IMG/VR virus record: IMGVR_UViG_3300021387_000452
Direction: 5' to 3' (one strand)
DNA length: 64,000 nucleotides
Source of the DNA: a virus
Lineage: Duplodnaviria; Caudoviricetes
Shown here: piece by piece, positions 8,363-58,809 of the stretch
How the letters are laid out: each line of letters begins with the position of its first letter
Position numbering within the stretch: position 1 is the stretch's first letter
Made by a program: the position numbers and the translations under genes
Notes under the pieces: generated by a model
The model's input: only the letters and a program-made list of their open reading frames with translations
Databases searched by the model: none
Told to the model about the DNA's origin: nothing

Positions 8363-8397
8363 AAGCTCTATGTAAATTTGATATATACATAGAGCTT
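8363..8397 (-). terminator. Intrinsic terminator with the late-promoter motif ATATCAA in its loop
   Basis: Perfect 12-bp stem AAGCTCTATGTA/TACATAGAGCTT, 11-nt loop, followed by a T-tract on the minus strand. Confidence 0.8.
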
Positions 8398-8428
8398 ACA
8401 TACTAGCAGAGCTATCTTTGCTAATCTA

Positions 8429-9481
8429 CTATATAAGTACTTCAAAATAACGGTTCAAGAATCGCTTAAAGTCATCAATTGATTTCTTAGTTGATATTGA
8501 ATATCGTTTCAAGCATGAAATAATACTATTTGTTGGAATAAATGAAAACTCATCTTTCAATTTAATAGTGAGCTTATAATTTGAATCCTGATTACTATCA
8601 GAGTCAAGCGTAAATACACCAGGGCGTCTCATTGAGATCATGTTGTAATTATAGTCTCTAATGCTATTTACTTCATCAGATAATTCATACTGCTTATTAG
8701 AATCAAATCTAGCGTTCTTCATTATTACTGTATTTGAAATATTCTCAAACCATTCATCTAATTCTTTGCTACTATTATATGCATACGGATATGAGATATC
8801 TTCAGACTTAGCTACAAAATCAACTATACCAAGATCTGTGAATACTACAAAGTGAAAATATTTATAGCTGTCTACAACATCACCCGTTAGATTCTCAGTA
8901 GCTACTTTCTTTAATGTTGGTTGATTCTCAGCTTCATCAATGACTTGTGTATCTTCAACTATGATATTATTTCTAGCTGACTCGTTTGCTGCTATAAATG
9001 ATCTACTATACGAATAATCACTATCAAGCTGACGAACATGCAGAACATAGTGTCTACTTTTAAAATAGTCGCATTCACATAGAAAATCTTTACTCATCTT
9101 AAGAGCTGCAGCATCGTTTGGAGTTTTGCTTGCCTTTGTTGACACTAACTCGAACTTACTATTTATATAATGAATGTTCTCTGTATCTCTATCACTATAT
9201 GAAAGCCATGGAAGAACGTCCTCTTCAGTAAACCCAGCTGATTCTAGATTCTTATAGTCTTGCTTAGTAAATGTCTGAATAAGGTTACTTGGATTTACTT
9301 TAACCTGACTAGAAAATCTATCTACGAGTGATTTAGCACTACTATCACTAGCTTTATCAGCTAATGCTGTAGCTACAGCTGTTGATTTATTTGACTTTGC
9401 TTTACTAGACTCAGATTGTCTAAGTTTAGATAATATGTCAGCCAACCCCTCATCGATTCTGATTCCACCTACATCTGCCAT
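8429..9481 (-). CDS. Hypothetical protein
   Basis: 350-aa ORF with a GGAG RBS; no recognised motif. Confidence 0.75.
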   Translation of the reverse strand: MADVGGIRIDEGLADILSKLRQSESSKAKSNKSTAVATALADKASDSSAKSLVDRFSSQVKVNPSNLIQTFTKQDYKNLESAGFTEEDVLPWLSYSDRDTENIHYINSKFELVSTKASKTPNDAAALKMSKDFLCECDYFKSRHYVLHVRQLDSDYSYSRSFIAANESARNNIIVEDTQVIDEAENQPTLKKVATENLTGDVVDSYKYFHFVVFTDLGIVDFVAKSEDISYPYAYNSSKELDEWFENISNTVIMKNARFDSNKQYELSDEVNSIRDYNYNMISMRRPGVFTLDSDSNQDSNYKLTIKLKDEFSFIPTNSIISCLKRYSISTKKSIDDFKRFLNRYFEVLI

Positions 9482-9493
9482 ACTAAGTATCTC

Positions 9494-9811
9494 CTAGTTA
9501 ATAATATTGAAAAAATAGCAAATCTTCTTATGAAACAGCTCTATTGTCTCATTATTTTTAATCATATCTTTTCGAACAATTCTATCATTCTTTAGAAGAT
9601 AAACCATGTATCTCCCATGTCTATCTTCTACATAAAACTGAAATACATAAGGTGATTTATAGAAGCTGAGATATAGGCTTTTATATCTTCCGCTAGTAAA
9701 GATGAGTTTTACATTTCTTTTATAGCGAGTCTTTATGATCGTTTGAATGCATCGACCTACGTCTTCTAACGATTTTATATAGTCTTTCTTATCTATCATA
9801 GCCATACTCAA
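9494..9811 (-). CDS. Hypothetical basic protein
   Basis: 105-aa Lys/Arg/Tyr-rich ORF, preceded by both promoter motifs. Confidence 0.65.
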   Translation of the reverse strand: MSMAMIDKKDYIKSLEDVGRCIQTIIKTRYKRNVKLIFTSGRYKSLYLSFYKSPYVFQFYVEDRHGRYMVYLLKNDRIVRKDMIKNNETIELFHKKICYFFNIIN

Positions 9812-9864
9812 ATGCGGTTACTGTGTTGGGTCATACTATGTATTGATATTCAGTAGTCACAAAA

Positions 9865-9897
9865 AAGCTCCTATATGAATTATACATATAGGAGCTT
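9865..9897 (-). terminator. Intrinsic terminator after the sheath gene, with TGTATAAT across its loop
   Basis: Perfect 13-bp stem AAGCTCCTATATG/CATATAGGAGCTT plus T-tract. Confidence 0.85.
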
Positions 9898-9916
9898 AGT
9901 AATTTAACTCAATCGA

Positions 9917-12424
9917 TTAAACAACGCCCTCTTCTGCAAGAGTTGTAGCTGTTGAATAGATTGTGTAGGTGAGATCGAAGATTTCTGCTGACTGGTAGAA
10001 AATGAGTGAGATGTTACCTTTAATCATACGATTTGCAATCTCTTCATCAGAGGTTGTATCGGTACCCATCTTAACATCATATTCTCTTAATGCGTTAGCA
10101 GCCTTCAAAGGCTCAAGAATATAATTGGTAACGTAGTTTTTCCAAGTGTCCCAAAGAACAACACTGTTGATTGAGAATTTCAATTTGTCAGTATATTCAT
10201 CAATGGTGCTACGAATATAAACAAGTGTACGGGCAATATGAGCAGCGTTAAGATCTGTGTAACCAGCGTTTAGAGTTTCATTTCCGAAGATCTGAATACC
10301 TCTTGTGCCAGTATCATAGATTGGATTGATTCTGCACTGAACTAGCTGATCTCGCTGAGCTTTTGTCTTTGGATTCTTTACGATTTCGCAAGTCTCAGGA
10401 AGTGTTCCGTATTGATCACCAGCAACTGGATAATGAACACCACGTTCACGATATGAAGTCATGATGTTATTTATTACTAAGTTTGCTGGAGCAGTTAGAA
10501 CTTTAACAGACTTGGCTAAGCCGCTCTCAATCTGTGTGCATTGCTGCTTGAGCCATGAATAATATATTTCAAGATAGAAGCTCTGAATTGAATAGTCAAC
10601 TGTGTTTGTAACGCCATATTCCCAGAGATCTGCGTAATCTTTCTGTGAAGTTACCCAATCACAAGCATCATCTACTTCAAATGGTGTAGTATCAGCAATG
10701 CTCTTGCAGAATGGAGTAGAAAGAATAACTGTGCAGTCCTTGCGTTCACATGCAATCTGTTTTAGATTATAATGAAGTGCTCTACGCTCTTCATGGTTTG
10801 GAGCATAAACACCATCATCTGAACCAGCTCTATCTTCATCTTCCATATCACGGGAAACTGGAGCAGTTAGATCTGCCATTAGGCAACCAACGTATTTCTT
10901 GGCTTTGTACTGCTCAAGAGCTGCGATATAGTCATTCATTGAAACTTTGAATAAAGGCTCGCTAACTGTTACAGGCTGCTCTAGCTCTACTGGATTTCTT
11001 AATGGAGCTGCCCAGTTACCGCTATCTAAACAATATTTCTCAAGTAAAGCGTTAACAATTGAATTAGCTCCACGATCTTTAACTGGACAAGCACCAGCAG
11101 TGTCTTTATCGATGAGCTCAAATCGAACTGCAGTACCAAGTGATGAGTTTAGATTGTTTACCACACTCTGATTTGTTGTAGTCTGCTCAAGTTTGATCTT
11201 TGCAGAGCCAAGAATGTTCTTGCCACCATTATTCTTAACTGCAACGTTTAGATAGTAAACATGAAGTGAATATGGCTTTGTCTGTGAAAGATAAACATCA
11301 AATGTAAGATCTTCAGCCATTGATGAGTAAGCAATCAATGAGTGAGATGCTCTTGTAACACCGTTAATGTTAAAGACTTTAAGTGCACCGCTCTCGGTTA
11401 GCTTACCGTCTAATGTGCTCTTTAGTGTCTCTTTAGTTTCATCAGCAGCTAACTCATGTGTAACTGTGATTTCCAAATAACCGCCACTGAATTTGTAGTC
11501 GATCTTCTTAGGAACTCTTGGATCTGGTGTAGCTTCGATAGTAAACGCAGTTTTAAGATCATTGAGTGCAGAATTCAATAGAATGTACTCATTCTCAAGT
11601 TTAGTAGTACTCTTCAAAGTAAATGAAACTTCTTTTTCAACTGATTCATCATACTTAATAGTAGTGCTATCTTTTGATTCAGTTACTGCTTTAACTTTAA
11701 TAGGCTCTGCGCCCCAAGTTGGGTCTACATAACCAAACGCTACTATATTGGTGAAGCCAAAATCTTCAAGAAGTGTGATCTCAAGATCAAATTTACCATT
11801 TGCTTTTGCAACGCACTTCCATGTGTATTTACCAGTAAGATCAACGCCGTCACTTGGATATGGATTACTATCTGGGCTGCTTGGTTCTACATCATCAGTG
11901 CCTGCTACAGAAAATGGCTCTGAGTAAAGTACAAGGCTACCAACACCTGGTGTAGGTGTTTCACCATAACCTCTTAACTTGTCTACAATATATTTATTGT
12001 TGACATCTTTAATTACCCATTTACGTGAACCAATTGGTTCATTTTCTAACTGGATTTCAGTTTCATTACCAGCTGTATCATCCCGACGAACTTGATCTGC
12101 TAAGAATGTGAACTCATAAATACCAGACTCACCAGAATTTACTTTAGCAACATAACAAGATGTACCGTTACCAACTACTTGCATAATGCTGTAGAGATCA
12201 ATGTACTTTTTAGGGTCGATACGAGGATCACCGAAATTAGCAATTAAGCTCTCTGTGTCACGAATAAGAATTGGGCTGTATAACTTATCAGCATTCTTCT
12301 CTAACTTTGCTATTGGTGTAATAGCAGCAAGAAGAGGTGTGAAGCTGACTATATTTGGAACGACAGATAAGTCTTTTACTCTTGACTTAAGATGCGCTGA
12401 CTCGCGTGTCTCATTTCTAATCAT
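9917..12424 (-). CDS. Major tail sheath protein (gp18-like)
   Basis: N-terminal PILIRDTESLIANFGDP and C-terminal RDQLVQCRINPI...IFGNETL...HIARTLVYI are contractile-sheath signatures. Strong RBS. Confidence 0.9.
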   Translation of the reverse strand: MIRNETRESAHLKSRVKDLSVVPNIVSFTPLLAAITPIAKLEKNADKLYSPILIRDTESLIANFGDPRIDPKKYIDLYSIMQVVGNGTSCYVAKVNSGESGIYEFTFLADQVRRDDTAGNETEIQLENEPIGSRKWVIKDVNNKYIVDKLRGYGETPTPGVGSLVLYSEPFSVAGTDDVEPSSPDSNPYPSDGVDLTGKYTWKCVAKANGKFDLEITLLEDFGFTNIVAFGYVDPTWGAEPIKVKAVTESKDSTTIKYDESVEKEVSFTLKSTTKLENEYILLNSALNDLKTAFTIEATPDPRVPKKIDYKFSGGYLEITVTHELAADETKETLKSTLDGKLTESGALKVFNINGVTRASHSLIAYSSMAEDLTFDVYLSQTKPYSLHVYYLNVAVKNNGGKNILGSAKIKLEQTTTNQSVVNNLNSSLGTAVRFELIDKDTAGACPVKDRGANSIVNALLEKYCLDSGNWAAPLRNPVELEQPVTVSEPLFKVSMNDYIAALEQYKAKKYVGCLMADLTAPVSRDMEDEDRAGSDDGVYAPNHEERRALHYNLKQIACERKDCTVILSTPFCKSIADTTPFEVDDACDWVTSQKDYADLWEYGVTNTVDYSIQSFYLEIYYSWLKQQCTQIESGLAKSVKVLTAPANLVINNIMTSYRERGVHYPVAGDQYGTLPETCEIVKNPKTKAQRDQLVQCRINPIYDTGTRGIQIFGNETLNAGYTDLNAAHIARTLVYIRSTIDEYTDKLKFSINSVVLWDTWKNYVTNYILEPLKAANALREYDVKMGTDTTSDEEIANRMIKGNISLIFYQSAEIFDLTYTIYSTATTLAEEGVV

Positions 12425-12447
12425 AATCTATATATCTCCTCAATGCG

Positions 12448-12873
12448 CTAAGAATTTCTAAGAACTGTTAATAATTCAAAATACTTAAGCTTGCCTTTTT
12501 TGTAATCTCGGTAGTAAGAACTAAAATCCTTCTCAAGAGTATAGTTTCGAGTATAATCAGAAAAGATACTCTTTTCGCTGTCAGACAACTTCGACCAAAT
12601 AGCAGAAAATACATGCTGAACAGTAAATGGCACTATGTGTGAAGTTAATAAATGATGTGGTCTAAACTGTTTATTTTCAGCAAAGCAAAACAAATGCTCA
12701 TTATGTTCTTCACAGAATAGCTTAGCTGCCTTTGTATTAGTGTTATCATGAAATGGGCAGAAGCATGATGTAGTTCTATCCGGAAAACTTATACCAGCAT
12801 ATTTTAATAGATATTCAAACGTGCAAAAATAATCAATGACGTTTACTTCAAGTGCAAAATCTACATCTGCCAT
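12448..12873 (-). CDS. Stand-alone DNA primase CHC2-type zinc-binding domain protein
   Basis: CPFHDNTNTKAA...LFCFAE matches the DnaG zinc ribbon. No Toprim domain is attached. Confidence 0.75.
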   Translation of the reverse strand: MADVDFALEVNVIDYFCTFEYLLKYAGISFPDRTTSCFCPFHDNTNTKAAKLFCEEHNEHLFCFAENKQFRPHHLLTSHIVPFTVQHVFSAIWSKLSDSEKSIFSDYTRNYTLEKDFSSYYRDYKKGKLKYFELLTVLRNS

Positions 12874-12882
12874 GTCAATACT

Positions 12883-14073
12883 CTAATATGCAATAATAGC
12901 TGCTTTTACTGCTGGAAGATTACCATACTGTTTAATGTTTTCTGAATTTGCGCTATCATACTCAAGTACTTTAGCATTAAGTTGATCAGCAACAAACTTA
13001 CGAAGCTTAAGAAAGTTATCATACTCTGTAGAATCACCATCGCTTTTGAACTTTTTGTTAATCCAAGCGCTCAAAGCACTTTGATTTTTATCACTATTTC
13101 TACTACTGAAATCATCTTTGTCTGAATTGTTTGCAGCTTTATCATCAGCAGACTTTACAGAGCCGCCAGTTAATTTGCTCATGTCTAATACATTATAGAG
13201 AACCTTAAATACAGTTTTCTCAGATGGCTTCTTAATACGACCGTCTATAGGTGCAACAGCAATACATACGGTGTTATCCTCTGAAGAATCTTTCTCAGAA
13301 CCAGAGTCCATTGCATATCTGCATCTGCCTATAAAAGGAGCATTCATTGTAAAGTTACTATCTGTTGATACCAGCGTCTTTAGCTGAGAAACGATAAAAC
13401 ACGCAGGATTTGTATCTTTTATTGCAAGTGTTCTGGCTGCTTTAAAGTTACCTGATTTAAGAGCTGATTTAATAGCGTCAATGTTTGTAACTTTACTATC
13501 AAGTATAATAGTCCATATAGAGTAACCTTCTTTTGAAAGTGATACTTTTACATGTAGTGTAGTTTTTGCGTCATTAGTTAGCTTCTGCGCTTGATCATCT
13601 GTATTCTGCTGCTGATTATCACTTTTATTAGCTGAGCTATCAGTGTTCTGCTGAATAGGTTGCTGGACTTGGTCTTGTTGAGCAGCTTGCTGTGAAGAGC
13701 CTTGACTGTCATCTCTAGCTGGCTCATCTTCAAATACTCTGTGAAGATAACTATATGCCTCTAATATTGAGTAATTTCTAATAAAGCTATTATTATCAGA
13801 AGTAGAAGTACTGCTATCTGAACTTTGACTTGTTGAAGATGGTTGAGATGCACTGCTTTGTGACTGCTGCTGCGGCTGTTCATTCTGTGAAGTTGATTGG
13901 TCAGATTCTTGATTAGAATCATTTTCACTAGAAGTATCTACAAACTCAATCTTACAGCTCTTTGATGAAGGCCCTAATAGAAATGTATTTAATAATTGAG
14001 TCGCCTCTTTACTCTGTCTAGTATCATCATCAACTGGCTTATCAGGAAATTCGCAAACTTTTATAAAACTCAT
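12883..14073 (-). CDS. Hypothetical protein with Gln/Ser-rich low-complexity linkers (possible virion protein)
   Basis: 396 aa; preceded by tandem TGTATAAT and ATATCTA motifs. Confidence 0.7.
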   Translation of the reverse strand: MSFIKVCEFPDKPVDDDTRQSKEATQLLNTFLLGPSSKSCKIEFVDTSSENDSNQESDQSTSQNEQPQQQSQSSASQPSSTSQSSDSSTSTSDNNSFIRNYSILEAYSYLHRVFEDEPARDDSQGSSQQAAQQDQVQQPIQQNTDSSANKSDNQQQNTDDQAQKLTNDAKTTLHVKVSLSKEGYSIWTIILDSKVTNIDAIKSALKSGNFKAARTLAIKDTNPACFIVSQLKTLVSTDSNFTMNAPFIGRCRYAMDSGSEKDSSEDNTVCIAVAPIDGRIKKPSEKTVFKVLYNVLDMSKLTGGSVKSADDKAANNSDKDDFSSRNSDKNQSALSAWINKKFKSDGDSTEYDNFLKLRKFVADQLNAKVLEYDSANSENIKQYGNLPAVKAAIIAY

Positions 14074-14129
14074 ATCAAATCACTCCATAACTTATGACTC
14101 AATGTAAGCATGATTCTTACTAATATAAT

Positions 14130-14144
14130 TAGATATATTATACA
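14130..14144 (-). promoter_or_regulatory. Tandem TGTATAAT + ATATCTA promoter motifs
   Basis: Minus strand reads TGTATAATATATCTA just downstream of the 14151-14176 hairpin. Confidence 0.65.
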
Positions 14145-14150
14145 ACAAAT

Positions 14151-14176
14151 CCCTAGCAGATGAAACTCTACTAGGG
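14151..14176 (-). terminator. Intrinsic terminator after the SF2 helicase gene
   Basis: CCCTAGTAGA/TCTGCTAGGG stem (one G-U) followed by ATTTGTTG. Confidence 0.65.
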
Positions 14177-14187
14177 TTACACGAATT

Positions 14188-15714
14188 CTACTTAGTTCTA
14201 CGCCAAAGCATATTATCCTTAAGCATCTTCTTTTCAGCGCCAAGATCGACATCAATATAATTACATTGATCATCAAGACTGTCCAAAGTACCAAGCGCTT
14301 CACTGCCAAGAAGAGTGCTTATTAACGCTTTATGACTCTTAAATAAAGATGTCTTATATGTGTCGATAGTGTCTTTCACTGATATAAAATAGATATTTTG
14401 CTGATCATATGTAGAGTCCATTCTACAAACGCGACCGAGTGTTTGAATTACTCTACCAATCGACCAATCACAGTGAAAGCAGATTATATTATTTGACCTT
14501 TGAAGATTGCGTGACTGTGATGCAGCCTGTGAGCATAGTATGATGTCTTTTAATCCAAGATTTGATTCAATCTTTGCACGATAATCTTCTTTCTCTGCGC
14601 CAGTTAGTCGATATATATTGTTAAATCCAATCTCTGACTTATGCTCTAATAACAGCTGCTCAGCTCTTTCAAGAGAATCAATATATACAAAGTATATAAG
14701 AGTTGATTCATTACGATCAATGATTTCTTTTACTGTAGACAAAAGAAGTTTCATCTTATTTGTAACAAATGACTCATCATTGTCTTTAGTGTCTATAATT
14801 CGCTGTAAGTCATGAACCCTAGCGCCAAAATCTTTTGCATCATCTACTGGACTGCCTGGCTCTCCATCTTTCTTCTTTGATTTTTTCTTCACTTTCTCAG
14901 GATGATAGAGAATGTCAAAGAATCCTTTCGCTGCCATGGTGTAAAGCTTTTCACATTCTTTATCAAGATCACATTCTAGAAAGTTAAAATTTACATTATA
15001 ATGAACACAGCCCTTTATAATAAGCTTATCAAGAACGTCATTCAGTTCTTTCATGTTTTGATAGCCAACTATTTCAGTGATTTTTCTCTGAATTACAGCG
15101 CCAAATCTGTTCTTCATTCTAATAGTTCTATCTTGTGTAATGCAATATCTTGCTCTAAACTTAAACCACGACTGAAACACTCTTGGGTACACAAAGTGAA
15201 GAACATTGAATAGACCCTCAATGTCGTTTAGCAGTGGAGTAGCTGTCATCGCAATAATCTTCTTACAATAGCATCTAATCTCCCATGCTGCACTAGCAAA
15301 CACAGACTTTGGATTCTGTAAAGAGTGAGCTTCATCTATAACAAGATGGCATGTGTTAGTACTAGCAAGAGCAACCAAATCTTCGATGTATTTATTGACA
15401 ACTGAATTCTCTACAATGATATATCTCTTATTGGAAATATCTTCATACTTAATAGTCTTCCCAGCAGTTACAAATATGTAATCATTTTCTGGAATCTCAA
15501 GTTTGGTACTCAACTCTTTCTTAAATGCAGCTCTTGCTGACTTTGGAATGAATAAGATACACTTATGATTGTTGTCTTTTAGTAGATCATCTTTTACATG
15601 ACATAATACGCAGAGCGTTTTTCCGCATCCAGGGGAGAGCGCAAGTATAGCTGCATTCATTGATCTAAGCTTTTCTATTGAGCTCTTTTGAAGCTCAGAC
15701 AGTTCAAATTTCAT
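14188..15714 (-). CDS. SNF2-like superfamily 2 helicase
   Basis: Walker A SPGCGKT, motif II DEAH, motif III TATP, motif VI QTLGRVCR. Confidence 0.9.
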   Translation of the reverse strand: MKFELSELQKSSIEKLRSMNAAILALSPGCGKTLCVLCHVKDDLLKDNNHKCILFIPKSARAAFKKELSTKLEIPENDYIFVTAGKTIKYEDISNKRYIIVENSVVNKYIEDLVALASTNTCHLVIDEAHSLQNPKSVFASAAWEIRCYCKKIIAMTATPLLNDIEGLFNVLHFVYPRVFQSWFKFRARYCITQDRTIRMKNRFGAVIQRKITEIVGYQNMKELNDVLDKLIIKGCVHYNVNFNFLECDLDKECEKLYTMAAKGFFDILYHPEKVKKKSKKKDGEPGSPVDDAKDFGARVHDLQRIIDTKDNDESFVTNKMKLLLSTVKEIIDRNESTLIYFVYIDSLERAEQLLLEHKSEIGFNNIYRLTGAEKEDYRAKIESNLGLKDIILCSQAASQSRNLQRSNNIICFHCDWSIGRVIQTLGRVCRMDSTYDQQNIYFISVKDTIDTYKTSLFKSHKALISTLLGSEALGTLDSLDDQCNYIDVDLGAEKKMLKDNMLWRRTK

Positions 15715-15740
15715 ACTTAATAATCCTATGCAAAATAAAA

Positions 15741-15770
15741 CCCAGCAATGAAATATACATCACTGCTGGG
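15741..15770 (-). terminator. Intrinsic terminator whose 8-nt loop is exactly TGTATATT
   Basis: CCCAGCAGTGA-TGTATATT-TCATTGCTGGG-TTTTATTTT on the minus strand. Confidence 0.8.
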
Positions 15771-15798
15771 CTGATGCTAAATCATATGATGTGTAGTA

Positions 15799-16083
15799 TT
15801 AAAATTCTTTTCCGTTCTCTCTATCTTCAAAAATAGAGCTGAAGCGATCATTAGCTTCTTTTGAGAAAATATTTTCACATACTTTAAGTGCCATATTTAC
15901 ATCGCTATAATTAGCAATATCACTATATGCTAATGTCTTACATAGATCATTTACAATCTGTCTAATACTATCTGCTGCTCTGTATACAGCATTAGCAACT
16001 GGATCAGCTGCTTCATTCTTAGCAGACTTACGATTCATCATTCTTTCTAATCTTGCAATTCTAGCCTCTAATTTCTTATCCAT
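15799..16083 (-). CDS. Small protein with an N-terminal LEARIARLE tag and KNE|A site (candidate internal head protein)
   Basis: 94 aa, GAGG RBS; motif shared with three other ORFs in the window. Confidence 0.6.
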   Translation of the reverse strand: MDKKLEARIARLERMMNRKSAKNEAADPVANAVYRAADSIRQIVNDLCKTLAYSDIANYSDVNMALKVCENIFSKEANDRFSSIFEDRENGKEF

Positions 16084-16092
16084 ATTTGTACC

Positions 16093-16929
16093 TCACAACG
16101 CGTTTAATCTCTCTATCTTTGACTTAAGAAAATCACTTATTGTAACTTGCTCTCTGTCATAGTCGCAGGTAAGATTATCTTCAATGACATTCAACTTCAT
16201 AATGTCAAAGTTGACTTTGAATTTATCATACGCTTCAATTAGCTTATCAATCCATTTCTTCTCAGAATCTTTCAGAGACTCTTTAACACAATCTAATTGA
16301 TATACTGACGGGCAGTCTCCAGAATAATTTAAAGAATTTACTATGTGAGCAGCTAACTTTCTTGGGAACCTTGCTACTGGTGGATATAGAGTATCGCTTG
16401 CATCACCAGCGATTGCTCTAAAGATTGGCAGCTTTGCGGGCTCTATTTCAAAGAACTTATCAGCGTATTCAAACTTATAAGACTCTTCTGTAATCACGCG
16501 GTCTGTGCCATTATCTATGACAGTGTCTGGCTTCAATGACTGTAAAATATCTTTATCGCCTGAGATAATTTTCTTTCTTCCTTCTAAAGTCCTAGACAGC
16601 GTGAAGATAATCTCATCTGATTCATAACTATTATTAAAGTATATTTTTATACGATCATTGTGAATCAAATGAACAAACGATGATAGAGCCTCATAGACGC
16701 TTCTCTGACCATCTCTACATCTGTTGCCTTTGTAAGCTTCACCAAGAAGTCGTCTACCTTTCGTGTCGCGCCCATCAAGTGCTAGATGGACAGTCGCATC
16801 TTTTCTTACAAGCAATGACTCAATTTTCTTACATAAGAAATGAATCTCTGGATACTCTTCCCAAATCTTTGAGCAGCTGAAATAGCCCCTATATAAAAGC
16901 CATGACGTGTCGCATAAATAATGAATCAT
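16093..16929 (-). CDS. 5'-3' exonuclease / flap endonuclease (T4 RNase H / PolA N-terminal family)
   Basis: DTSWLLYR, ALD, ESDEII, SGDKD and GDASD acidic motifs. Start moved to ATG 16929 (AAGGA RBS 7 nt upstream). Confidence 0.85.
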   Translation of the reverse strand: MIHYLCDTSWLLYRGYFSCSKIWEEYPEIHFLCKKIESLLVRKDATVHLALDGRDTKGRRLLGEAYKGNRCRDGQRSVYEALSSFVHLIHNDRIKIYFNNSYESDEIIFTLSRTLEGRKKIISGDKDILQSLKPDTVIDNGTDRVITEESYKFEYADKFFEIEPAKLPIFRAIAGDASDTLYPPVARFPRKLAAHIVNSLNYSGDCPSVYQLDCVKESLKDSEKKWIDKLIEAYDKFKVNFDIMKLNVIEDNLTCDYDREQVTISDFLKSKIERLNAL

Positions 16930-16939
16930 GTGCATATCC

Positions 16940-17614: not shown

Positions 17615-17641
17615 ATAAGCTCCAAATGCAAATACAATAAA

Positions 17642-17677
17642 AGGGCATAGAGATAATTCTACACCCTATAGTATACA
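17642..17677 (-). terminator. Terminator after the tail tube gene, with TGTATACT immediately upstream of its 5' arm
   Basis: AGGGTGTAGA/TCTATGCCCT stem (two G-U) plus TTTATT; motif at 17670-17677. Confidence 0.65.
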
Positions 17678-17694
17678 CAAATACTCTTTAATAA

Positions 17695-18270: not shown

Positions 18271-18290
18271 ATTATATCCTCCAAACTATG

Positions 18291-21237: not shown

Positions 21238-21241
21238 ACTA

Positions 21242-21645: not shown

Positions 21646-21687
21646 AAGGGGTGGTGTCTAATATATAGATATTAAACGCTACCCCTT
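21646..21687 (-). terminator. Long imperfect terminator hairpin with ATATCTA at its loop
   Basis: 18-bp inverted repeat with three imperfect pairs, motif at 21666-21672, followed by GTTTT. Confidence 0.65.
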
Positions 21688-24387: not shown

Positions 24388-24458
24388 AATAATCTCCAGT
24401 AAGTTATTAGACAGTAGCTATAAAGAATAGATATTGCATTCATAATGATATACAAAAA

Positions 24459-24486
24459 TACCCAGCTGGGATTAACCAGCTGGGTA
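24459..24486 (-). terminator. Intrinsic terminator after the major capsid gene
   Basis: TACCCAGCTGG/CCAGCTGGGTA stem plus TTTTT. Confidence 0.85.
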
Positions 24487-27091: not shown

Positions 27092-27164
27092 TGATGATTA
27101 GTTTCAGTATTGTAGGCTCTTATAATAATAGATAATTAGCATTGAAAAAGTGTGATTATACAGA

Positions 27165-27194
27165 AATAGCGTAGAGAAGCTTCTCTACGCTATT
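27165..27194 (-). terminator. Perfect 30-bp palindrome / terminator, followed by TGTATAAT (27155-27162)
   Basis: AATAGCGTAGAGAAGCTTCTCTACGCTATT. Confidence 0.8.
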
Positions 27195-31263: not shown

Positions 31264-31331
31264 GCTGCTCCTCCAAATTAATATAACTATACTATAACTA
31301 CTACTTTATTGATATATAACTTCATAAAAGA

Positions 31332-31355
31332 AAGCCCCTGAATATTCAGGGGCTT
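31332..31355 (-). terminator. Intrinsic terminator
   Basis: AAGCCCCTGAA/TTCAGGGGCTT plus TCTTTT. Confidence 0.85.
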
Positions 31356-37871: not shown

Positions 37872-37947
37872 TCGAATTACCTCATAAGACGGATAATGAA
37901 AATAACGTACATAAATATATGTATTTGATATATGAGATCATACTACA

Positions 37948-37973
37948 AAACCCTCAAGAAGTCTTGAGGGTTT
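37948..37973 (-). terminator. Intrinsic terminator
   Basis: AAACCCTCAAGA/TCTTGAGGGTTT plus TGT. Confidence 0.8.
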
Positions 37974-44939: not shown

Positions 44940-44980
44940 ATCGTCTGAGCCCTGTGCAAAAGTAAAAGCCAAAATACAAC

Positions 44981-45015
44981 TAAAGAGAGACTATGAAGCC
45001 TCTCTTTATTGATAT
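44981..45015 (-). terminator. Terminator with ATATCAA abutting its 5' arm
   Basis: TAAAGAGAGGC/GTCTCTCTTTA stem at 44981-45008; motif at 45009-45015. Confidence 0.7.
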
Positions 45016-46817: not shown

Positions 46818-46828
46818 AGACCCTCCAA

Positions 46829-47707: not shown

Positions 47708-47770
47708 GACTATATCATCTCACAATAAATTCAGTAAAGTTTATTAGTATTTGATATGAAGTCACACAAT

Positions 47771-47802
47771 AAAACCCGAGGTGTTAAAGCATCTCGGGTT
47801 TT
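47771..47802 (-). terminator. Intrinsic terminator (possibly bidirectional)
   Basis: AAAACCCGAGATG/CACCTCGGGTTTT stem with one mismatch. Confidence 0.8.
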
Positions 47803-47809
47803 GAACTAG

Positions 47810-48496: not shown

Positions 48497-48513
48497 AGTA
48501 TCAATCCTCCAAA

Positions 48514-50034: not shown

Positions 50035-50088
50035 AGTACATACTCATCTAAAGCTTCATAATCAAAATAAGTACTTAACTATTATAGT

Positions 50089-50101
50089 TAGATATTGATA
50101 T
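50089..50101 (-). promoter_or_regulatory. Two overlapping copies of the late motif (ATATCAATATCTA) upstream of the portal gene
   Basis: 55 nt upstream of the portal ATG. Confidence 0.6.
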
Positions 50102-50103
50102 TA

Positions 50104-52557: not shown

Positions 52558-52560
52558 TCT

Positions 52561-55500
52561 CTAGTTGTCAGAATCTTCTGAATATAGAAGATCATAATAG
52601 AAGACTTTATTAGATGATGTCCAATATGGTGACTTTGGTACTTGATTAACTCTATATCTGTTGTATACTGAGCTCCACTGGTCTTTTGTAATCTCTGAAT
52701 GTTGCGTTACTACTCCGGCACTCTTAGTTGTATAAACTAAAGTACCTGGATCTAGATCAACTGCAAATGTACCAGATGTAAATGCAGTTGTACCAATTGT
52801 CGTTGGCGTAGCTACTTTAACAGTAATTGACGCAGTACTTACGTTGCTATAATCATCTGTAACAGTTACTGTAAATACGTAAGTAGTCTCTGGAATTGTG
52901 TTCTCTGGTATTTTGAATGTCTTTTGCTCATCATTTATTGAAATAAGATGACTTGCTTCTGGCCCACTCCAAACAACAGTATAACTATCACCATCAACAT
53001 CAATAACATCTATGCTCAATGTAACAGTATCTCCAGGGTTACCTTCAACTAGAGGTGTAAGTACAGTAATTCGCGGAGCTGTATTTGCATAATATGACGC
53101 ATTAACTGAAGTTGTTGCTGTGCTAGATGCTCCGAAATTATCTGTAACTGTTACTGTAAATGTGTAAGTAACATTCCCAGTAAGATTAGCTGGTATAGTA
53201 AAAGTAGGATTTGCTGAAGATGTACTTGAGAATTCTCCATCATGATTGCAAGACCATTCGTACGCTATTGTATCATCACTATCTGGATCTGATGCATTTG
53301 CATGTAATGTAATAATAGCTCCCTGATGACATGTAGTAGGTGATGCTTCAGGATGAGCAATCGGCGCATGGTTAATAGATGCCTCATCTGTTATGTAGCA
53401 TCGCGCACTTACACCGCTAAGAAGCTTATATAATAAGTGATCTAAATTCCACTTAATTTCATGAGTGTCTTCGCTTATTGTGTACACAACACCTTTAGGA
53501 ACTATAAAAGTATCTACACCAACAGACGCGTTGAATGAAACTATTACACCATTTATGTCACTGTCAACGCTATGTTCAGGGCTCATGTAGAATCCAGGCT
53601 TAGAACTATACGTATATAATCTAAATGAATCTGGTGTAAATGGCGCAGTACTATCACTGTCAAGAATTTTCACATCAGTGTATTGACCAGAGCCGCTAAT
53701 TGGCTGAAGATCATCGTTCTTCATTGATTCAGTCGGGAGGCTTGGCCAGTACTGTGGATCATACCAATTAGTGTCTGAGTGGCTATTAAACTGATATACC
53801 CAATAATAATCGGTTGCGATAGCTTTGTCACTATACTTCATTTTACCAATAAATGGCTTAAGATCATCATTCAAATCAGATAAATCACTTGAATAATTAT
53901 CATATATTGTATATATGTCTTCTAGCTCAAGCGCATTTCCATCACCGCTGTCATCATATAAGCTGTTTAGAATACTACATATTGTTGACGCTGGTGTAAT
54001 TATACTAATGATGTCACTAACTGGAACACTGCTCTTGTTTGTTTTGAAAGATCTAATGACAACCGAACTCTTAAGATCTGCGTCTGTTATAACGCTCTCA
54101 ATCTCACTAAGACTAGTCTTATTACAGTCAATCATATGAGCAATGTATTGCTGCTTAAATTCACCATTATCTGTGATTTCAGAATTTACAGTATACAAAC
54201 TTACATTGAGAATGTCAATTATACCATTGAACTTATTATAGTCTGATGGATTTGTGCATAGATATGCCAATTTCTGAAGAGTAAAGTATTCATTGAGATA
54301 TAAATGGCTGATAACGTTATCTCTATTGTCTGATTCAGTGTTGACAAGACTAGAGAACAGCTGCTTATTGTATGGTGATGTGAATACCTTGTCAATGCAT
54401 TTATTTCTTTTAGTATCATCTGCGATATCGCATACATCTTTTAAATCAACTTCGCCATCACTAAATAATACATTTACTACTCCATCATAGACGTTTGTAA
54501 GTCGTGAATCAGTGATAAGTGTATTGAACTTGTTTCCATTATTAAATGGCTCTTTATTTTTCTTATACAGATACGCAATGATATTGTAGCATTGATTGCT
54601 TGTGAATGTGGCTAACTTTGATATGTCATAATTTTTAAGTAGCAGATCATAAATCTTATCATTATGTTCATACTCAATATATTTCACAATAAATCTACTG
54701 CCTGGACCACTACCCCAAGTATAGCTCTCGCTAAGCCAGCTGTAAATGTTATCGTCTGTTACAGAATAACGCAGCAGAGCATTTACTACTGAGTGCCACT
54801 CATGAGCAAAAGCAATCTCAAACACATCACCAAGCGATGAACTACCCACTAAGTAGTGGCATAGCTTTTCAACTAGCATTTCATCTTCATTATCAACAGC
54901 AACAGCTAATGCAGACTTCTTACTATCATCATCTGTGCCACATTCTCTAAGAATATATGAGGCTCTATTAGTTTTAACAAGAGTGCCAAGAATATAATCA
55001 ACAGAAGCGTAGCACGACATCATGCACGCTGAATAAAGAAGTGTAATGTCATAGCTATCAGTAATTTCGGCATAGTCAGAAAAGCTAGTTCTACTGCCAA
55101 GAGCTTCTAAAATATCAGACTTTGGGAGCTTGGCAGCCTCACTCAAATCGGCTTTAGTAACAGTAGCTGGTGTATTTATCTTAGTAGTCGCTTTAAGATA
55201 AGCTACAGCATACTGTGGCTGATATTCATAGTCCCACACATACTCAAACTTGTTTCGTATGTCTTTACATTCTTCGTCTTTCTTGTGAATCTCTGACCCA
55301 TCAGCGTTGCACTGCTTTATAGGATTACCTTCATCATCACGCATTGGCGAATGTGTACCATCATCCTCGTACTTATAAACTATGTTATAGCTCACTAACT
55401 CTGGCGGAATTGGAAAGACTTCACCATCTTTTACAAGTCTACCTAGTTGCTGAGTCACTGGCTCTGCAGTAACAGATAAAGGGTCTTTAAGATTGCTTGG

Positions 55501-55977
55501 ATCTAGTGGATAAACTACTCCATTAGTATCTTTTATATATATCACGTTATCTTCATCGTCGCGAGCTGGAACTGGATTATCATCAGCATCCTTCTTTGGC
55601 TGTTCACTTTCTTGAGCTTCAGTTGTAGAATCAACTACCTCTTCAGTTGTATCGTCATACACATAAACATCATTACCAATCAGAGCATCAACTGACTCTT
55701 TACAGCCAGACATGATTGCGCACTGAAGTGGAGTCTTACCTTTACCGCATTTCTTAGACGGCGCACAACCATGTTCTTTTATAAGGCAAACAATCTTATC
55801 TGGCTTAATACCATTCATAGCCGCAAAACAAAGTGGAGTATACCCCTCTGAGTCATTAGAATTGTATGTCCATGATGAATCTATAGCTATGCATTTGCCA
55901 TAAAGCTCACTTATTGCTTGTTTTGTCTTTAGATCATCAGCAGTGTATGTAATTTTTGGTGGTGTTTCATCAGGCAT
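52561..55977 (-). CDS. Ankyrin-repeat protein with C-terminal PKD/Ig-like domains
   Basis: Ankyrin-like GYTPLCFAAMNG, GKTPLQCAIMSG, ITLLYSACMM and SALAVAVD. PKD-like NHAP...SDPDSD..IAYEWS...YTFTVTVTD and NTAP...DVDGD...YVFTVTVTD. Confidence 0.8.
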   Translation of the reverse strand: MPDETPPKITYTADDLKTKQAISELYGKCIAIDSSWTYNSNDSEGYTPLCFAAMNGIKPDKIVCLIKEHGCAPSKKCGKGKTPLQCAIMSGCKESVDALIGNDVYVYDDTTEEVVDSTTEAQESEQPKKDADDNPVPARDDEDNVIYIKDTNGVVYPLDPSNLKDPLSVTAEPVTQQLGRLVKDGEVFPIPPELVSYNIVYKYEDDGTHSPMRDDEGNPIKQCNADGSEIHKKDEECKDIRNKFEYVWDYEYQPQYAVAYLKATTKINTPATVTKADLSEAAKLPKSDILEALGSRTSFSDYAEITDSYDITLLYSACMMSCYASVDYILGTLVKTNRASYILRECGTDDDSKKSALAVAVDNEDEMLVEKLCHYLVGSSSLGDVFEIAFAHEWHSVVNALLRYSVTDDNIYSWLSESYTWGSGPGSRFIVKYIEYEHNDKIYDLLLKNYDISKLATFTSNQCYNIIAYLYKKNKEPFNNGNKFNTLITDSRLTNVYDGVVNVLFSDGEVDLKDVCDIADDTKRNKCIDKVFTSPYNKQLFSSLVNTESDNRDNVISHLYLNEYFTLQKLAYLCTNPSDYNKFNGIIDILNVSLYTVNSEITDNGEFKQQYIAHMIDCNKTSLSEIESVITDADLKSSVVIRSFKTNKSSVPVSDIISIITPASTICSILNSLYDDSGDGNALELEDIYTIYDNYSSDLSDLNDDLKPFIGKMKYSDKAIATDYYWVYQFNSHSDTNWYDPQYWPSLPTESMKNDDLQPISGSGQYTDVKILDSDSTAPFTPDSFRLYTYSSKPGFYMSPEHSVDSDINGVIVSFNASVGVDTFIVPKGVVYTISEDTHEIKWNLDHLLYKLLSGVSARCYITDEASINHAPIAHPEASPTTCHQGAIITLHANASDPDSDDTIAYEWSCNHDGEFSSTSSANPTFTIPANLTGNVTYTFTVTVTDNFGASSTATTSVNASYYANTAPRITVLTPLVEGNPGDTVTLSIDVIDVDGDSYTVVWSGPEASHLISINDEQKTFKIPENTIPETTYVFTVTVTDDYSNVSTASITVKVATPTTIGTTAFTSGTFAVDLDPGTLVYTTKSAGVVTQHSEITKDQWSSVYNRYRVNQVPKSPYWTSSNKVFYYDLLYSEDSDN

Positions 55978-56004
55978 GTCTATACTCTCTTAAGATATAA
56001 AATT

Positions 56005-56042
56005 AAACCCTCTATGAATTGATATACTTTCATAGAGGGTTT
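56005..56042 (-). terminator. Terminator after recA with ATATCAA in its loop
   Basis: Perfect 14-bp stem AAACCCTCTATGAA/TTCATAGAGGGTTT with a 10-nt loop. Confidence 0.8.
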
Positions 56043-56065
56043 ATCTATAAGATTATGCTAATAAA

Positions 56066-57172
56066 CTATTCAGTATCATCTACATCATCTATATCACAAG
56101 AAGATCCAGCAGTAAGCTCAGCCTCAGAATCAACAACTTCATCTTCTTCATTTGGAATAAGAGCAATCCCGCCAAGTGAATCAGCAAGTTCAACAAAGTA
56201 CTCTAGATGGTCCTTTAAAAATGTCTCTAATTCATCTTTAGGCACTAGAACTGTTTCACCCTGATATTTAACATTCCAACCTTTACGAAGCACTCTCTCG
56301 ATGATTCCATGATATTCTAGCACAGACCTAACTGCGCCAGCATTAGAGATCCCCTTGCCAAAATGAATTGTGATTACTTTCTTTAGTAATGGACGAGCAT
56401 ATCGATTTTTATCTGTCCAAATTGCAAGATCACATCCATACGGAACTGGCTTATCATAACCCGGCAAAGTCTGTTCAAGCATCATTACTTTCTTAAGCAT
56501 CACTCGAACATCCATGTAATAACCTAAAGCTTGACCACCAGCTTGAGTAAGTTTAGTAACCTGACCATAGCCCATTGCAATCTTTGTTCTTAGCTGGTTT
56601 ACAAAGATCACTGTCTTATCAGTGTTCTTAAAACGAGCTTTGAATTTCTGCATGAAGTTTGACTGAATACGAGCTGCGACGCCAGGCTCATTCATTTCAT
56701 CTACGTTCTTTTCTGTTAAACGACCTGGAACTGTTGCAGTGATACTATCATAAATAATAAGCGCTACATCTTTATCATCTAGTACTTTGCAAAGGAAATC
56801 ATCAACTTCGCCATACGTCTGAAGACGTACTGGGATGAACAGCATTTCATCTACATACTGTCTCATACCAAAGCAATCGATCTGCTGACCATTAAGACCC
56901 TGCTCAGTGTCAATATAAATAACTCGTTTTCCCTGTGAGCAATACTTCTTTGAAATATGCAAACACATTGTAGATTTACCACAGCCAGACTCAGATGCAA
57001 TCTCAATAAATGTTCCAGCAGGAATGCCTCTACCATTTGAAATAACAGCGTCTAAGATGATTGAGCCAGATGGAGAAAATTGCTCTTCTTTACAAGTGAG
57101 ATCCATCATTTCTGAATATAGCTTCGAAAAATCTGTCTTTTTCTTTTCTTTATCAGCTGCTGCTTTAGCCAT
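56066..57172 (-). CDS. recA: RecA/UvsX-like recombinase
   Basis: SGSIILD, Walker A ESGCGKST, YIDTE, IIYDS, FVNQLR and GGQALGYY. Start ATG 57172 with GGAG RBS. Confidence 0.92.
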   Translation of the reverse strand: MAKAAADKEKKKTDFSKLYSEMMDLTCKEEQFSPSGSIILDAVISNGRGIPAGTFIEIASESGCGKSTMCLHISKKYCSQGKRVIYIDTEQGLNGQQIDCFGMRQYVDEMLFIPVRLQTYGEVDDFLCKVLDDKDVALIIYDSITATVPGRLTEKNVDEMNEPGVAARIQSNFMQKFKARFKNTDKTVIFVNQLRTKIAMGYGQVTKLTQAGGQALGYYMDVRVMLKKVMMLEQTLPGYDKPVPYGCDLAIWTDKNRYARPLLKKVITIHFGKGISNAGAVRSVLEYHGIIERVLRKGWNVKYQGETVLVPKDELETFLKDHLEYFVELADSLGGIALIPNEEDEVVDSEAELTAGSSCDIDDVDDTE

Positions 57173-57225
57173 AACGTTACGCTCCAAAATTATACAAAGT
57201 GACCGCTAAATTGCATAAACTCATA

Positions 57226-57238
57226 TAGATATTATACA
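57226..57238 (-). promoter_or_regulatory. Overlapping TGTATAAT and ATATCTA motifs upstream of recA
   Basis: Minus strand TGTATAATATCTA; a second TGTATAAT sits at 57189-57196. Confidence 0.65.
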
Positions 57239-57244
57239 AATTAG

Positions 57245-58741
57245 CTAATGACTGTTTAACCCAAAAATATCATCATCAAAGTCAGATACAATATTAGTTC
57301 CAGCTGGCTTCTGAGCAATATCACACGATGATAATGAATCAATCAAATCTGCTGATAACTCAGATTCGTCTACTGAAGCATCGCCTCCAAATTTATACGT
57401 AGAAGGTTCTATGTCAACTGGTATTGGTGCAATTGGTGAGCAGTATCTGCACTTAATAACCTGCACATATGCTTGATGAGATTCAATAAGCACTTTATCA
57501 ACAAATACTGTCATTACAACAGATGAGAATCTTTCAAGCTCATTGGCATCAGATAATGCAGTTGTACTATAACCCTCAACTTGAGTTGTCAATTGATTAT
57601 TCTTACCACCGGGACGAGTAACTGTAGACAGCTTCTTAAATGACGCTGCAGCTGCTTTAAATCCAGTTCTATTTGTCTGTGCTAATAATACTGTAGACAC
57701 TTGGCGCTTCTTACCATCTTTCTTTCTAAAGTCAACTGTCAATTCTCCAAAGAATGACACATATTTATTAATGATTGGCCCTGTGTTACTACCATTATAT
57801 AGCGGACTTCTTAATGCAAGCTCTCCAACGTGATCAACAAATATAGCATCTAATGGTTTTTCGTCATCCAATTGGTATAGAACATCAATAAACTCACTTT
57901 CTGAATAAGTCTTAAATCTTGAACGATCTACAATGTGCAAGTTCGGAACGATTGATTTCTGATACTCTGGCTCTAAAACGTCGCATAAAAAGTTTAACTC
58001 ATCTTCATAAAGCTCATTCTTTCTAATCTTTTGATGATCTAATGGGTGATATCCCATTCTAGTGAATCTCTGATCATTTGAAAACAAGCTCAATATGGAA
58101 TACTCCAACTGATCTTCGGCAACTTCTAATGAGATATAAGCAATATTCTTTCCCTCAAGAGCATTCTTCACTGCCATATTGACAGCCCACGTAGTTTTGA
58201 AACTTCCAGTGTGACCTGCTAATGTGCACATTGCACCTTTTGGTATTGACCCAATAGCATCATCAATCTGTTCTACATATGTTTTAAGACCAGCATTATT
58301 CTTCATACTACGCATGTAGCGTTCACGAAAAGACAACTGCTCTTCTACTATATCATTATCAAAGCTTGCTTGCTTTCGAACAGCCTCAGCCATCTCTGGC
58401 GTAATACCACCAACAGCAGCATCTGAAGCCATCTTATATAACACTTTAGATTTATAGATGTTTAAGTGCTTTGTTACAAACTGCTTTCTATAATATCTAA
58501 AGTCAGCTATTGAGAACGGCTCATAATCATTTAGCTGATCACGGTATTGAGGAAACTTTGATAGAAATACTTCTTGAGTAGGAAATTGCTTGTTACTGTT
58601 ATACTCTCTTGTTAAATAGTTAAATACATCTTTCTCATCTGATGAGAGAATATTTTTATTATCATCTGATAAGATGATTTGAAGCTCATTATAAAACTCA
58701 GTGTCTGAAACCCCAAGCAAAGATTTGACTATCTGAATCAT
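57245..58741 (-). CDS. DnaB-like replicative helicase
   Basis: Walker A GHTGSFKT, YISLE, IFVDH, LAQTNR and KCR. Start moved to ATG 58741 because the listed start lies inside a terminator. Confidence 0.88.
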   Translation of the reverse strand: MIQIVKSLLGVSDTEFYNELQIILSDDNKNILSSDEKDVFNYLTREYNSNKQFPTQEVFLSKFPQYRDQLNDYEPFSIADFRYYRKQFVTKHLNIYKSKVLYKMASDAAVGGITPEMAEAVRKQASFDNDIVEEQLSFRERYMRSMKNNAGLKTYVEQIDDAIGSIPKGAMCTLAGHTGSFKTTWAVNMAVKNALEGKNIAYISLEVAEDQLEYSILSLFSNDQRFTRMGYHPLDHQKIRKNELYEDELNFLCDVLEPEYQKSIVPNLHIVDRSRFKTYSESEFIDVLYQLDDEKPLDAIFVDHVGELALRSPLYNGSNTGPIINKYVSFFGELTVDFRKKDGKKRQVSTVLLAQTNRTGFKAAAASFKKLSTVTRPGGKNNQLTTQVEGYSTTALSDANELERFSSVVMTVFVDKVLIESHQAYVQVIKCRYCSPIAPIPVDIEPSTYKFGGDASVDESELSADLIDSLSSCDIAQKPAGTNIVSDFDDDIFGLNSH

Positions 58742-58772
58742 CTGTGTATCTCTACTTATAATAGTGAAATTA

Positions 58773-58809
58773 AAAAGTCCTAGACAAATATACATCATCT
58801 AGGACTTTT
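58773..58809 (-). terminator. Terminator with TGTATATT in its 13-nt loop
   Basis: Perfect 12-bp stem AAAAGTCCTAGA/TCTAGGACTTTT. Confidence 0.8.

Follow-up and report, generated by a model that had tools for sequence, protein, structure and literature searches.

Promoter-early stem-loop (PeSL) cassettes, described in the T4-type phages RB49/phi1, T4/PST and KVP40/nt-1, bring a stem-loop terminator and a promoter together in one short gap between genes (Arbiol et al. 2010, PMC2839356; Comeau et al. 2014, PMC4122927). The PeSL stem-loop lies most often between the -35 and -10 elements or overlaps the -10 box, and representative RB49 PeSLs display both promoter and terminator activity in reporter assays (PMC2839356). 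Promoter-coupled terminators are also common in bacteria, where Fletcher, Forrest, Cooper, Adams, Kapanidis and Grainger describe a termination site no more than 35 bp upstream of the next start, a -10 element right after the run of T residues (T-run), a transcription start ~10 bp after the stop and stem-loop DNA that overlaps the -35 element; phages are not treated in their study (bioRxiv 10.64898/2026.08.19.745784). Here we analyse a 64-kb stretch of DNA (64,000 nucleotides, hereinafter designated the window) from an uncultured phage, IMG/VR virus record IMGVR_UViG_3300021387_000452, in which terminator-type hairpins carry short promoter-like motifs inside the hairpin or directly against its 5′ arm. 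We consider it probable that these are composite terminator-promoter elements, in which a stop hairpin would hold the core of the next promoter and host RNA polymerase would most likely be used throughout. As in PeSLs of T4-type phages, a stop codon, a stem-loop terminator, a putative promoter, a Shine-Dalgarno sequence and a start codon share one short gap, and terminator and promoter motif overlap within it.

Two other phage systems associate promoters with inverted repeats. In T4, the late promoters of I-TevI, soc and gene 49 lie within hairpins that conceal the ribosome-binding site; the T4 late system comprises the gp55 sigma factor, gp33 and the gp45 clamp, with an 8-mer core at -10. The early promoters of phage N4 have short conserved stems and a 3-nt loop, and form a DNA hairpin, aided by SSB, for the virion RNA polymerase.

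The window corresponds to positions 29850-93849, read on the reverse strand, of an IMG/VR record of 111,771 bp, whose completeness is estimated at ~52%. All genes of the window lie on its minus strand (the coding strand in what follows), nearly all genes of the whole record lie on one strand, and the GC content is ~36%.

Promoter-like motifs embedded in terminator hairpins

Three short words recur in the record: motif A (ATATCAA), motif B (TGTATAWT) and motif C (ATATCTA). The initial annotation of the window had singled out six hairpins with such a motif in or across the loop and two with a motif just upstream of the 5′ arm, and all eight are borne out by folding and by their T-runs. All of them lie on the coding strand. 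The six hairpins with an embedded motif fold as RNA with energies of -16 to -22 kcal/mol and z-scores of -4.6 to -6.5, and none of the 200 shuffles made per hairpin folded as well at any of the eight sites. Their stems comprise 10-17 pairs and the loops of the embedded hairpins 7-11 nt. The order on the coding strand is stem-loop, T-run and then, 10-30 nt on, a Shine-Dalgarno sequence and a start codon, with 30-45 nt between the hairpin and the next start codon. An intrinsic terminator has a G+C-containing stem-loop behind a gene and, immediately after it on the coding strand, a T-run, which is the arrangement found here; the T-run is weak at 44979-45010 and in the relatives' variant of the 56001 site.

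The six hairpins with an embedded motif are:

8359..8401 (-): terminator hairpin with 15 pairs and an 11-nt loop, -16.1 kcal/mol, z -5.1; overlapping motifs B (8382-8389) and A (8378-8384) at the junction of 5′ arm and loop; leads via a T-run and a Shine-Dalgarno sequence to the start of the 1463-aa tape-measure gene

9865..9897 (-): terminator hairpin after the tail-sheath gene, 7-nt loop, -18.8 kcal/mol, z -5.4; motif B (9879-9886) occupies the 7-nt loop and the last stem pair; a separate motif A lies downstream of the hairpin at 9843-9849 (-)

15739..15772 (-): terminator hairpin with 13 pairs, -21.7 kcal/mol, z -6.3; motif B (15752-15759) is exactly the 8-nt loop, as first described; SNF2-type helicase gene 33 nt on

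21646..21687 (-): imperfect terminator hairpin before a 128-aa gene, -19.6 kcal/mol, z -4.6; motif C (21666-21672) in the apical part

56001..56046 (-): terminator hairpin with 17 pairs and a 10-nt loop, -20.4 kcal/mol, z -6.5; motif A (56019-56025) in the loop; flanked by the UvsX-like recombinase gene and a 1138-aa ankyrin/PKD virion-type gene

58773..58809 (-): terminator hairpin before the DnaB-like helicase gene, 15 pairs, 7-nt loop, -18.2 kcal/mol, z -6.0; motif B (58787-58794) within the hairpin

The two hairpins with a motif just upstream of the 5′ arm, where it ends 0-2 nt before the arm, are:

17640..17677 (-): hairpin 17640-17669, z -4.4; a motif-B variant (17670-17677) ends at the 5′ arm; the gene that follows encodes a 224-aa phosphoesterase

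44979..45015 (-): hairpin 44979-45010, z -6.6; motif A (45009-45015) abuts the 5′ arm

The true start codon of the DnaB-like helicase gene is probably downstream of the start given by the open reading frame tool. An independent terminator scan, whose top sites include 15772-15739, 9897-9865, 17667-17642 and 45008-44981, returns more terminator-like sites than expected from shuffles (17 versus 8.0 expected, and 21 versus 7.1 expected); the hairpins with large loops are absent from it because the scanner accepts loops of at most 8 nt.

The sites had also been proposed to represent one recurring cassette, and this part of the proposal did not hold. The longest strings common to different sites are the motifs themselves (no more than 12 nt, within the range of shuffles), the stems are unrelated and the sites are not copies of one repeat. 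A repeated mobile cassette was rejected on the same ground, as no sequence beyond the motifs is shared between sites.

A seventh embedded case is located outside the window, at positions 107870-107910 of the genome record. It is a 17-pair terminator before a 116-aa gene, holds overlapping motifs B and A in its loop and is built like 8359-8401. The 5′ arms of 8359-8401 and 9865-9897 open with nearly identical 15-18 nt, and a two-gene block (105 and 350 aa) lies between them; in relatives, the stems at these two sites are mutually unrelated. The shared start of the two arms could be due to chance, to gene conversion or to a recombination substrate of the PeSL kind.

Promoter-like features of motifs A, B and C

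The three motifs are enriched 5-7-fold in intergenic DNA, which makes up 5.5% of the record, and are biased to the coding strand. Motif A extended by two A/T bases occurs 23 times in the forward and once in the reverse orientation in the 111.8-kb record, compared with 4 and 6 occurrences of reversed controls. Intergenic motif copies are positioned 29-84 nt upstream of start codons, and 27 of the 34 gaps of at least 40 nt contain a motif, against 8 of 34 for the reversed motifs. Of the 47 forward copies of motif B, 22 have a start codon within the next 130 nt, in most cases 29-84 nt away.

Motif B consists of a TG directly before a TATAAT-like -10 hexamer, and is accompanied by a weak TTAA-like -35 signal at 17-bp spacing to the -10 part, a signal partly confounded with stop codons. 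It is found upstream of the helicase, DnaB-like, UvsX-like and primase-region genes. Motif A, located upstream of the tape measure and portal genes and of the largest structural genes, is a single short core with little conserved flank and no -35 element; in this it resembles the T4 late promoters, but its sequence is unlike the T4 late core. Motif C is usually trailed, within 0-4 nt, by a TATAAT-like word. Judged from sequence, these features fit three promoter classes.

Motifs often overlap one another or are arranged in tandem, as at 50035-50103, 57188-57244 and 14130-14144; examples are motifs A and C followed by a TATAAT box before the portal gene, motif B with motif C, and two copies of motif B before the UvsX-like gene. 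This suggests that a single gene may be served by more than one promoter class.

Motif presence is coupled to terminators and tracks loop size

To quantify the association we used all distinct intergenic hairpins that have a T-run and no fewer than 8 pairs, 3 or more of them G-C, taken from this record and from the corresponding loci of relatives (n = 77); since this set includes orthologous sites in related phages, its counts are not phylogenetically independent and speak less strongly for the composite elements than their size suggests. The screen replaces an earlier, looser one, whose 173 matches included many weak and intragenic hairpins and displayed no loop effect. Motif positions were distributed as follows:

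Motif inside the hairpin: 23/77; reversed-motif control 3/77

Motif abutting the 5′ arm: 14/77; reversed-motif control 1/77

Motif no more than 40 nt downstream: 24/77; reversed-motif control 8/77

No motif: 16/77; reversed-motif control 65/77

A motif is thus placed inside, against or shortly after 61 of the 77 terminators, compared with 12 of 77 in the reversed control; in this record alone the four classes number 6, 6, 8 and 6, respectively. The claim of unusually large loops is confirmed in the same set. Terminators with an inside motif have a median loop of 7 nt, compared with 4 nt for those without, and loops reach at least 7 nt in 16 of the 23 that hold a motif and in 10 of the 54 that do not (Fisher p = 2.8e-5; Mann-Whitney p = 3.8e-4). 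That loop enlargement tracks the inside motif indicates that the large loops exist because of the motif.

In the downstream class, 15 motif matches begin only 1-8 nt after the stem. Small-loop terminators with a motif at some distance downstream are represented in the window by:

14130..14178 (-): ordinary coupled layout; small-loop terminator 14149-14178, motif B (14137-14144) 5 nt after the stem, overlapped by motif C (14130-14136, -)

24428..24486 (-): small-loop terminator 24459-24486 after the major capsid gene, motif B (24447-24454) immediately behind it and then motif C (24428-24434); the layout is conserved in the relatives' loci L005 and L009

27155..27194 (-): small-loop (4 nt) terminator 27165-27194; motif B (27155-27162) starts 3 nt after the stem

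31309..31355 (-): small-loop terminator 31332-31355; motif A (31309-31315) 17 nt on; a 1079-aa gene next

37925..37973 (-): small-loop terminator ~37948-37973; motif A ~37925-37931 downstream; a 2027-aa gene next (sub-coordinates derived by hand)

47751..47802 (-): small-loop terminator ~47771-47802; motif A ~47751-47757 downstream (sub-coordinates derived by hand)

The loop effect bears directly on the explanation that embedding is incidental packing. Gaps in this genome are short (50-110 nt) and might force hairpin and motif to overlap, so that the embedded cases would be a tolerated accident without benefit and some of the motifs maybe inactive; the occurrence of all three layouts, their interconversion between relatives and the loss of embedding in some lineages are in line with this explanation. 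Nevertheless, a motif fits a loop only if the loop is enlarged, and enlargement tracks the presence of the motif. The arrangement also persists across at least six lineages while the stems turn over, and several embedded sites have no other motif between the hairpin and the next start codon, leaving us to regard mere packing as improbable.

Conservation of the motifs and covariation of the stems

By gene content, the phage is a distant T4-type myovirus, a giant phage of the 200-kb class. Its portal gene is T4-like (PF07230, E = 6e-37), and the window also encodes a gp23-type major capsid protein, a tail sheath, the tape measure protein of 1463 aa, a UvsX-like recombinase, a DnaB-like helicase, a Toprim primase piece and the SNF2-type helicase. 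A 604-aa protein encoded at 45024-46838 matches the tail-sheath beta-sandwich domain below threshold (PF17481, E = 1.6e-6), and its gene may be a second sheath-like gene besides that of the 835-aa sheath at 9917-12424.

The nearest cultured phages found by tblastn are remote, with ~30% capsid identity (Listeria LIS04, Streptococcus vB_SagM-GXN1, Bacillus HSE3 and SP-15), which makes cultured phages useless for comparing intergenic DNA. A megablast search with 8 kb of the window against the phage collection gave no match, and a single-protein locus search with the sheath protein found no locus. Metagenomes contain a large family of related phages, whose genomes measure 150-300 kb, and the samples behind the phage and this family are from rumen or gut. 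Alignments of the helicase, of a 157-aa protein and of the UvsX-like protein served to retrieve the relatives' loci (L002, L003 and so on), whose proteins range from ~100% down to 60% identity with those of the window. The eight sites flank genes that are conserved in all relatives.

The 21646-21687 site is the best one for comparison, with 10 distinct hairpins from at least six lineages, in each of which the 5′ arm runs straight into motif A or C. Between pairs of sequences, the motif averages 0.92 identity and the arm 0.52, and double changes, on both sides of the stem, are observed in 14 of 16 stem columns. As MAFFT does not bring these stems into one register, pairs were counted by script with the register fitted for each sequence. 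Such fitting favours pairing, and shifted registers therefore serve as the control: pairing amounts to 0.80 in register and to 0.33-0.53 in shifted registers, with 10-15 pairs in each stem.

At the site after the sheath gene (9865-9897), motif B is embedded in L002/L003, L005 and L008 as well, giving four lineages with different stems, and in a fifth lineage (L010) it lies ~40 nt downstream. The L002/L003/L005 loci, which form a 76% group, keep motif A inside a different stem at the tape-measure site (8359-8401). At the helicase site (15739-15772), motif B occupies the loop in five lineages, including L006/L007, L008, L011 and the L002/L024 group, and L009/L010 have a small-loop hairpin and then a TATAAT box instead. 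At the UvsX-like site (56001-56046), relatives with ~84% identity in the UvsX-like protein keep a one-mismatch motif A in the loop of a different stem, and three more distant relatives have no embedded motif. Motif B overlaps the 5′ arm at the DnaB-like site (58773-58809) in L006/L007 and L009/L010. The abutting layout of 17640-17677 recurs in eight relatives' sequences, and in L009/L010 the motif has shifted to just after the terminator. When the hairpin does not hold the motif, the motif usually stands just after the terminator (L009/L010, L051), so that both functions would persist and only their overlap varies.

Loop conservation with covarying stems in relatives had been proposed as a check on the initial annotation, with conserved stems around non-conserved loops as the pattern that would speak against it; what we find is the opposite of that pattern, as the motif is kept and the stems covary.

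This covariation also separates the composite elements from operators, that is, palindromes flanking a promoter core that are bound by a dimeric regulator. The palindromes do overlap the putative core, and some bacterial terminator palindromes double as transcription-factor sites (bioRxiv 10.64898/2026.08.19.745784). Against such a role, the arm sequences share nothing between sites and are free to change in relatives if pairing is kept, indicating selection on pairing rather than on a recognition sequence. Operators are accordingly the explanation to which we give hardly any credence.

The motif is kept at the apex of stable hairpins with changing stems, which might alternatively reflect a role at the RNA level, with the conserved terminator loop binding a phage or host protein, or marking the 3′ end of the upstream mRNA for processing or stabilisation, and no promoter involved. 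Such a role would not explain why most motif copies are outside hairpins, where they stand just behind terminators or occupy unstructured gaps and keep a promoter-like distance to the start codon. In several hairpins, moreover, the motif is partly paired rather than displayed, and at some orthologous sites it leaves the hairpin but remains upstream of the gene. We therefore judge a purely RNA-level function to be a poor candidate and quite unlikely.

At L008 8637-9418, ~780 nt without a coding-strand gene come after the motif-B loop hairpin that in other loci stands before the helicase gene; this geneless stretch points to an insertion or deletion right at the cassette, as with PeSLs.

A predicted route from stop to restart

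In the proposed composite elements, the hairpin and T-run would act on the coding strand as the intrinsic terminator of the upstream unit. The core of the next promoter would be written into the loop, which would hence be enlarged to 7-11 nt. Motif B would serve as a -10-like element with an adjacent TG, and motifs A and C would probably be read with a phage factor, with A marking virion genes; host RNA polymerase would most likely be the enzyme employed at all of them, as in T4. The new RNA would start in the 3′ arm or the T-run and, made without the 5′ arm, would form no terminator, entering the next gene with a leader of ~30-45 nt. Two neighbouring layouts occur in the same phages, one with the core directly after the T-run and the other with the core ending at the first base of the 5′ arm, in which case the start would fall inside the 5′ arm. 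We infer promoter activity, termination, start sites and the factor class for motifs A and C from the DNA sequence.

When the start is placed 6-8 nt past the motif, the predicted starts of the loop-embedded cases fall at +2 to +8 of the 3′ arm, with two of them within the loop. The RNA structure left then amounts to ~0 to -2 kcal/mol, compared with -15 to -22 kcal/mol for the full hairpin. Since a start anywhere downstream of the 5′ arm suffices for escape, the prediction is robust to the exact distance between motif and start. In the abutting class the motif starts 5-9 nt (mostly 7) before the arm, so that the predicted start lies 4-12 nt into the 5′ arm, and little structure is left in many of the predicted RNAs. 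At 44979..45015, for instance, the predicted start is 7-9 nt into the 5′ arm and -3 to -8 kcal/mol remain.

A related geometry is present at one hairpin of a different kind:

61228..61305 (-): non-terminator hairpin of the T4 I-TevI type, 13-bp stem, -20.2 kcal/mol, z -3.2; the stem buries the Shine-Dalgarno sequence of a NUMOD3 homing-endonuclease gene at 60237-61244 (NUMOD3 E = 7e-17; homing-endonuclease PHROG); the end of the 5′ arm falls within motif C, with a motif-B variant just upstream

Its layout supports motif C as a putative promoter that would start RNA inside the hairpin. T4 has this type of translational gate at gene e and I-TevII.

The initial annotation had proposed that upstream transcripts stop at these hairpins and that new transcripts, starting within them, escape termination. 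This proposal fits the strand bias, the geometry of the predicted starts and the conservation; for the abutting class, escape is not assured. Several results weigh against the proposal. In the abutting class, a hairpin of -6 to -17 kcal/mol is kept in several cases, making escape uncertain there. The TG of motif B adjoins the hexamer, one base off the canonical extended -10 spacing, and a generic sigma-70 scan gives no enrichment (78 sites found, 79 expected). Searches of the ~52%-complete record with T4 gp55, gp45 and RpbA using phmmer returned no match, and the 293-aa sigma/Mor-like candidate encoded at 61741-62622 has only a sub-threshold Mor match (E = 0.0095), with no PHROG and no PDB sequence match. 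The stem of the helicase site is mostly conserved, with one compensatory pair, and covariation there says little. Finally, embedding is lost at some orthologous sites in distant relatives.

The position of the core at the apex of an inverted repeat, combined with a predicted start upstream of the release point, also raises the idea of a hand-over, in which the terminating polymerase, or the supercoiling it generates, would open or extrude the core at the apex and the polymerase would be recaptured there, such that termination of one unit fires the next. We think this unlikely. If it were true, a core-bound polymerase would block read-through and in this way increase termination, and the elements would represent a phage-evolved, maximally overlapped form of promoter-terminator coupling that uses a phage-specific late motif.

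Comparison with PeSLs, coupled terminators, T4 and N4

Compared with PeSLs, the elements of the window differ in promoter class, in sequence conservation and in genomic setting. PeSLs contain near-consensus sigma-70 early promoters, whereas two of the three motif classes here are not sigma-70-like. Copies of a PeSL are conserved over ~100 bp, whereas the stems here are unrelated between sites. PeSLs are located in hyperplastic regions around orphan genes and drive recombination, which is not the situation here, as the elements stand between conserved core genes (sheath, tape measure, helicase and UvsX-like). The elements are not PeSLs in the strict sense, but would work like them.

Our scan of RB49 (NC_005066) recovers typical PeSLs with the hairpin in the spacer. 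It also reveals hairpins in which the -10 hexamer forms the loop and a T-run follows, for example one of 14 pairs on the complement of ~3150-3201, where the hexamer belongs to a consensus early promoter and makes up the entire loop, as well as several further hairpins in which the -10 element spans the loop and the 3′ arm. The loop-embedded geometry thus exists already in a published system, though it was not singled out there.

With the promoter-coupled terminators of bacteria, the elements have in common that a terminator and the next promoter share DNA between tandem genes, and the downstream class of the phage, with its motif 1-8 nt after the stem, matches that layout by sequence. The embedded class differs in that its core is in the loop, which places the predicted start upstream of the stop and would let the ending and the new RNA overlap by ~10-20 nt.

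In T4 (NC_000866), the late-promoter 8-mer occurs in ribosome-site hairpins at 67018 (gene e) and 45638 (I-TevII). As in the window, the core of such T4 promoters lies at the junction of 5′ arm and loop, and RNA made without the 5′ arm escapes the structure, but the structure bypassed in T4 blocks translation, not transcription. No exact late-promoter 8-mer was found inside a terminator-type hairpin of T4, and the nearest arrangement is an ordinary terminator at ~155800-155850 with a late-promoter core (155837) right behind it.

The association of a promoter with an inverted repeat, which the window shares with N4, underlies the alternative in the initial annotation that a cruciform or single-stranded replicating DNA presents the core unpaired, loosely as in N4. 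A -10-like core at the apex of a perfect inverted repeat suits this explanation, and sigma factors read the -10 element as single-stranded DNA. We found no support for it. Unlike those of N4, the stems are long (10-17 bp), differ between sites and covary, and they are dispensable for most motif copies, which occur outside hairpins and in part without any inverted repeat at all. Among the large open reading frames of the window there is no match to an N4-like polymerase family, and the T-runs that follow the hairpins are explained only by termination at the RNA level. Presentation of the core as unpaired DNA is consequently very improbable in our view.

In a literature search we came across no direct description of a promoter placed in the loop of a terminator, and long-read studies of phage transcription do not report one.

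Discussion

The placement of promoter-like motifs in and against terminator hairpins of this phage is real, non-random and conserved. Stop and restart within one element is the best supported reading of it, and rests on inference. Elements of this kind are already known; new here are the phage-specific motif classes, the cores in loops at the junctions of core genes and their conservation with covarying stems in an uncultured clade. The clade offers natural, covarying examples of the tightest overlap of promoter and terminator, with a predicted start upstream of the stop, and extends both the promoter-terminator coupling of bacteria and the PeSL cassettes of T4-type phages.

The elements could serve as compact insulator parts, and the three promoter-like motifs may be usable for annotating transcription units throughout this large, uncultured family of rumen and gut phages. 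If the predicted starts hold, ~35 bp of DNA would suffice to end one transcription unit and to start the next with a different promoter class, and a densely packed phage would in this way re-time each block of genes with no intergenic space spent.

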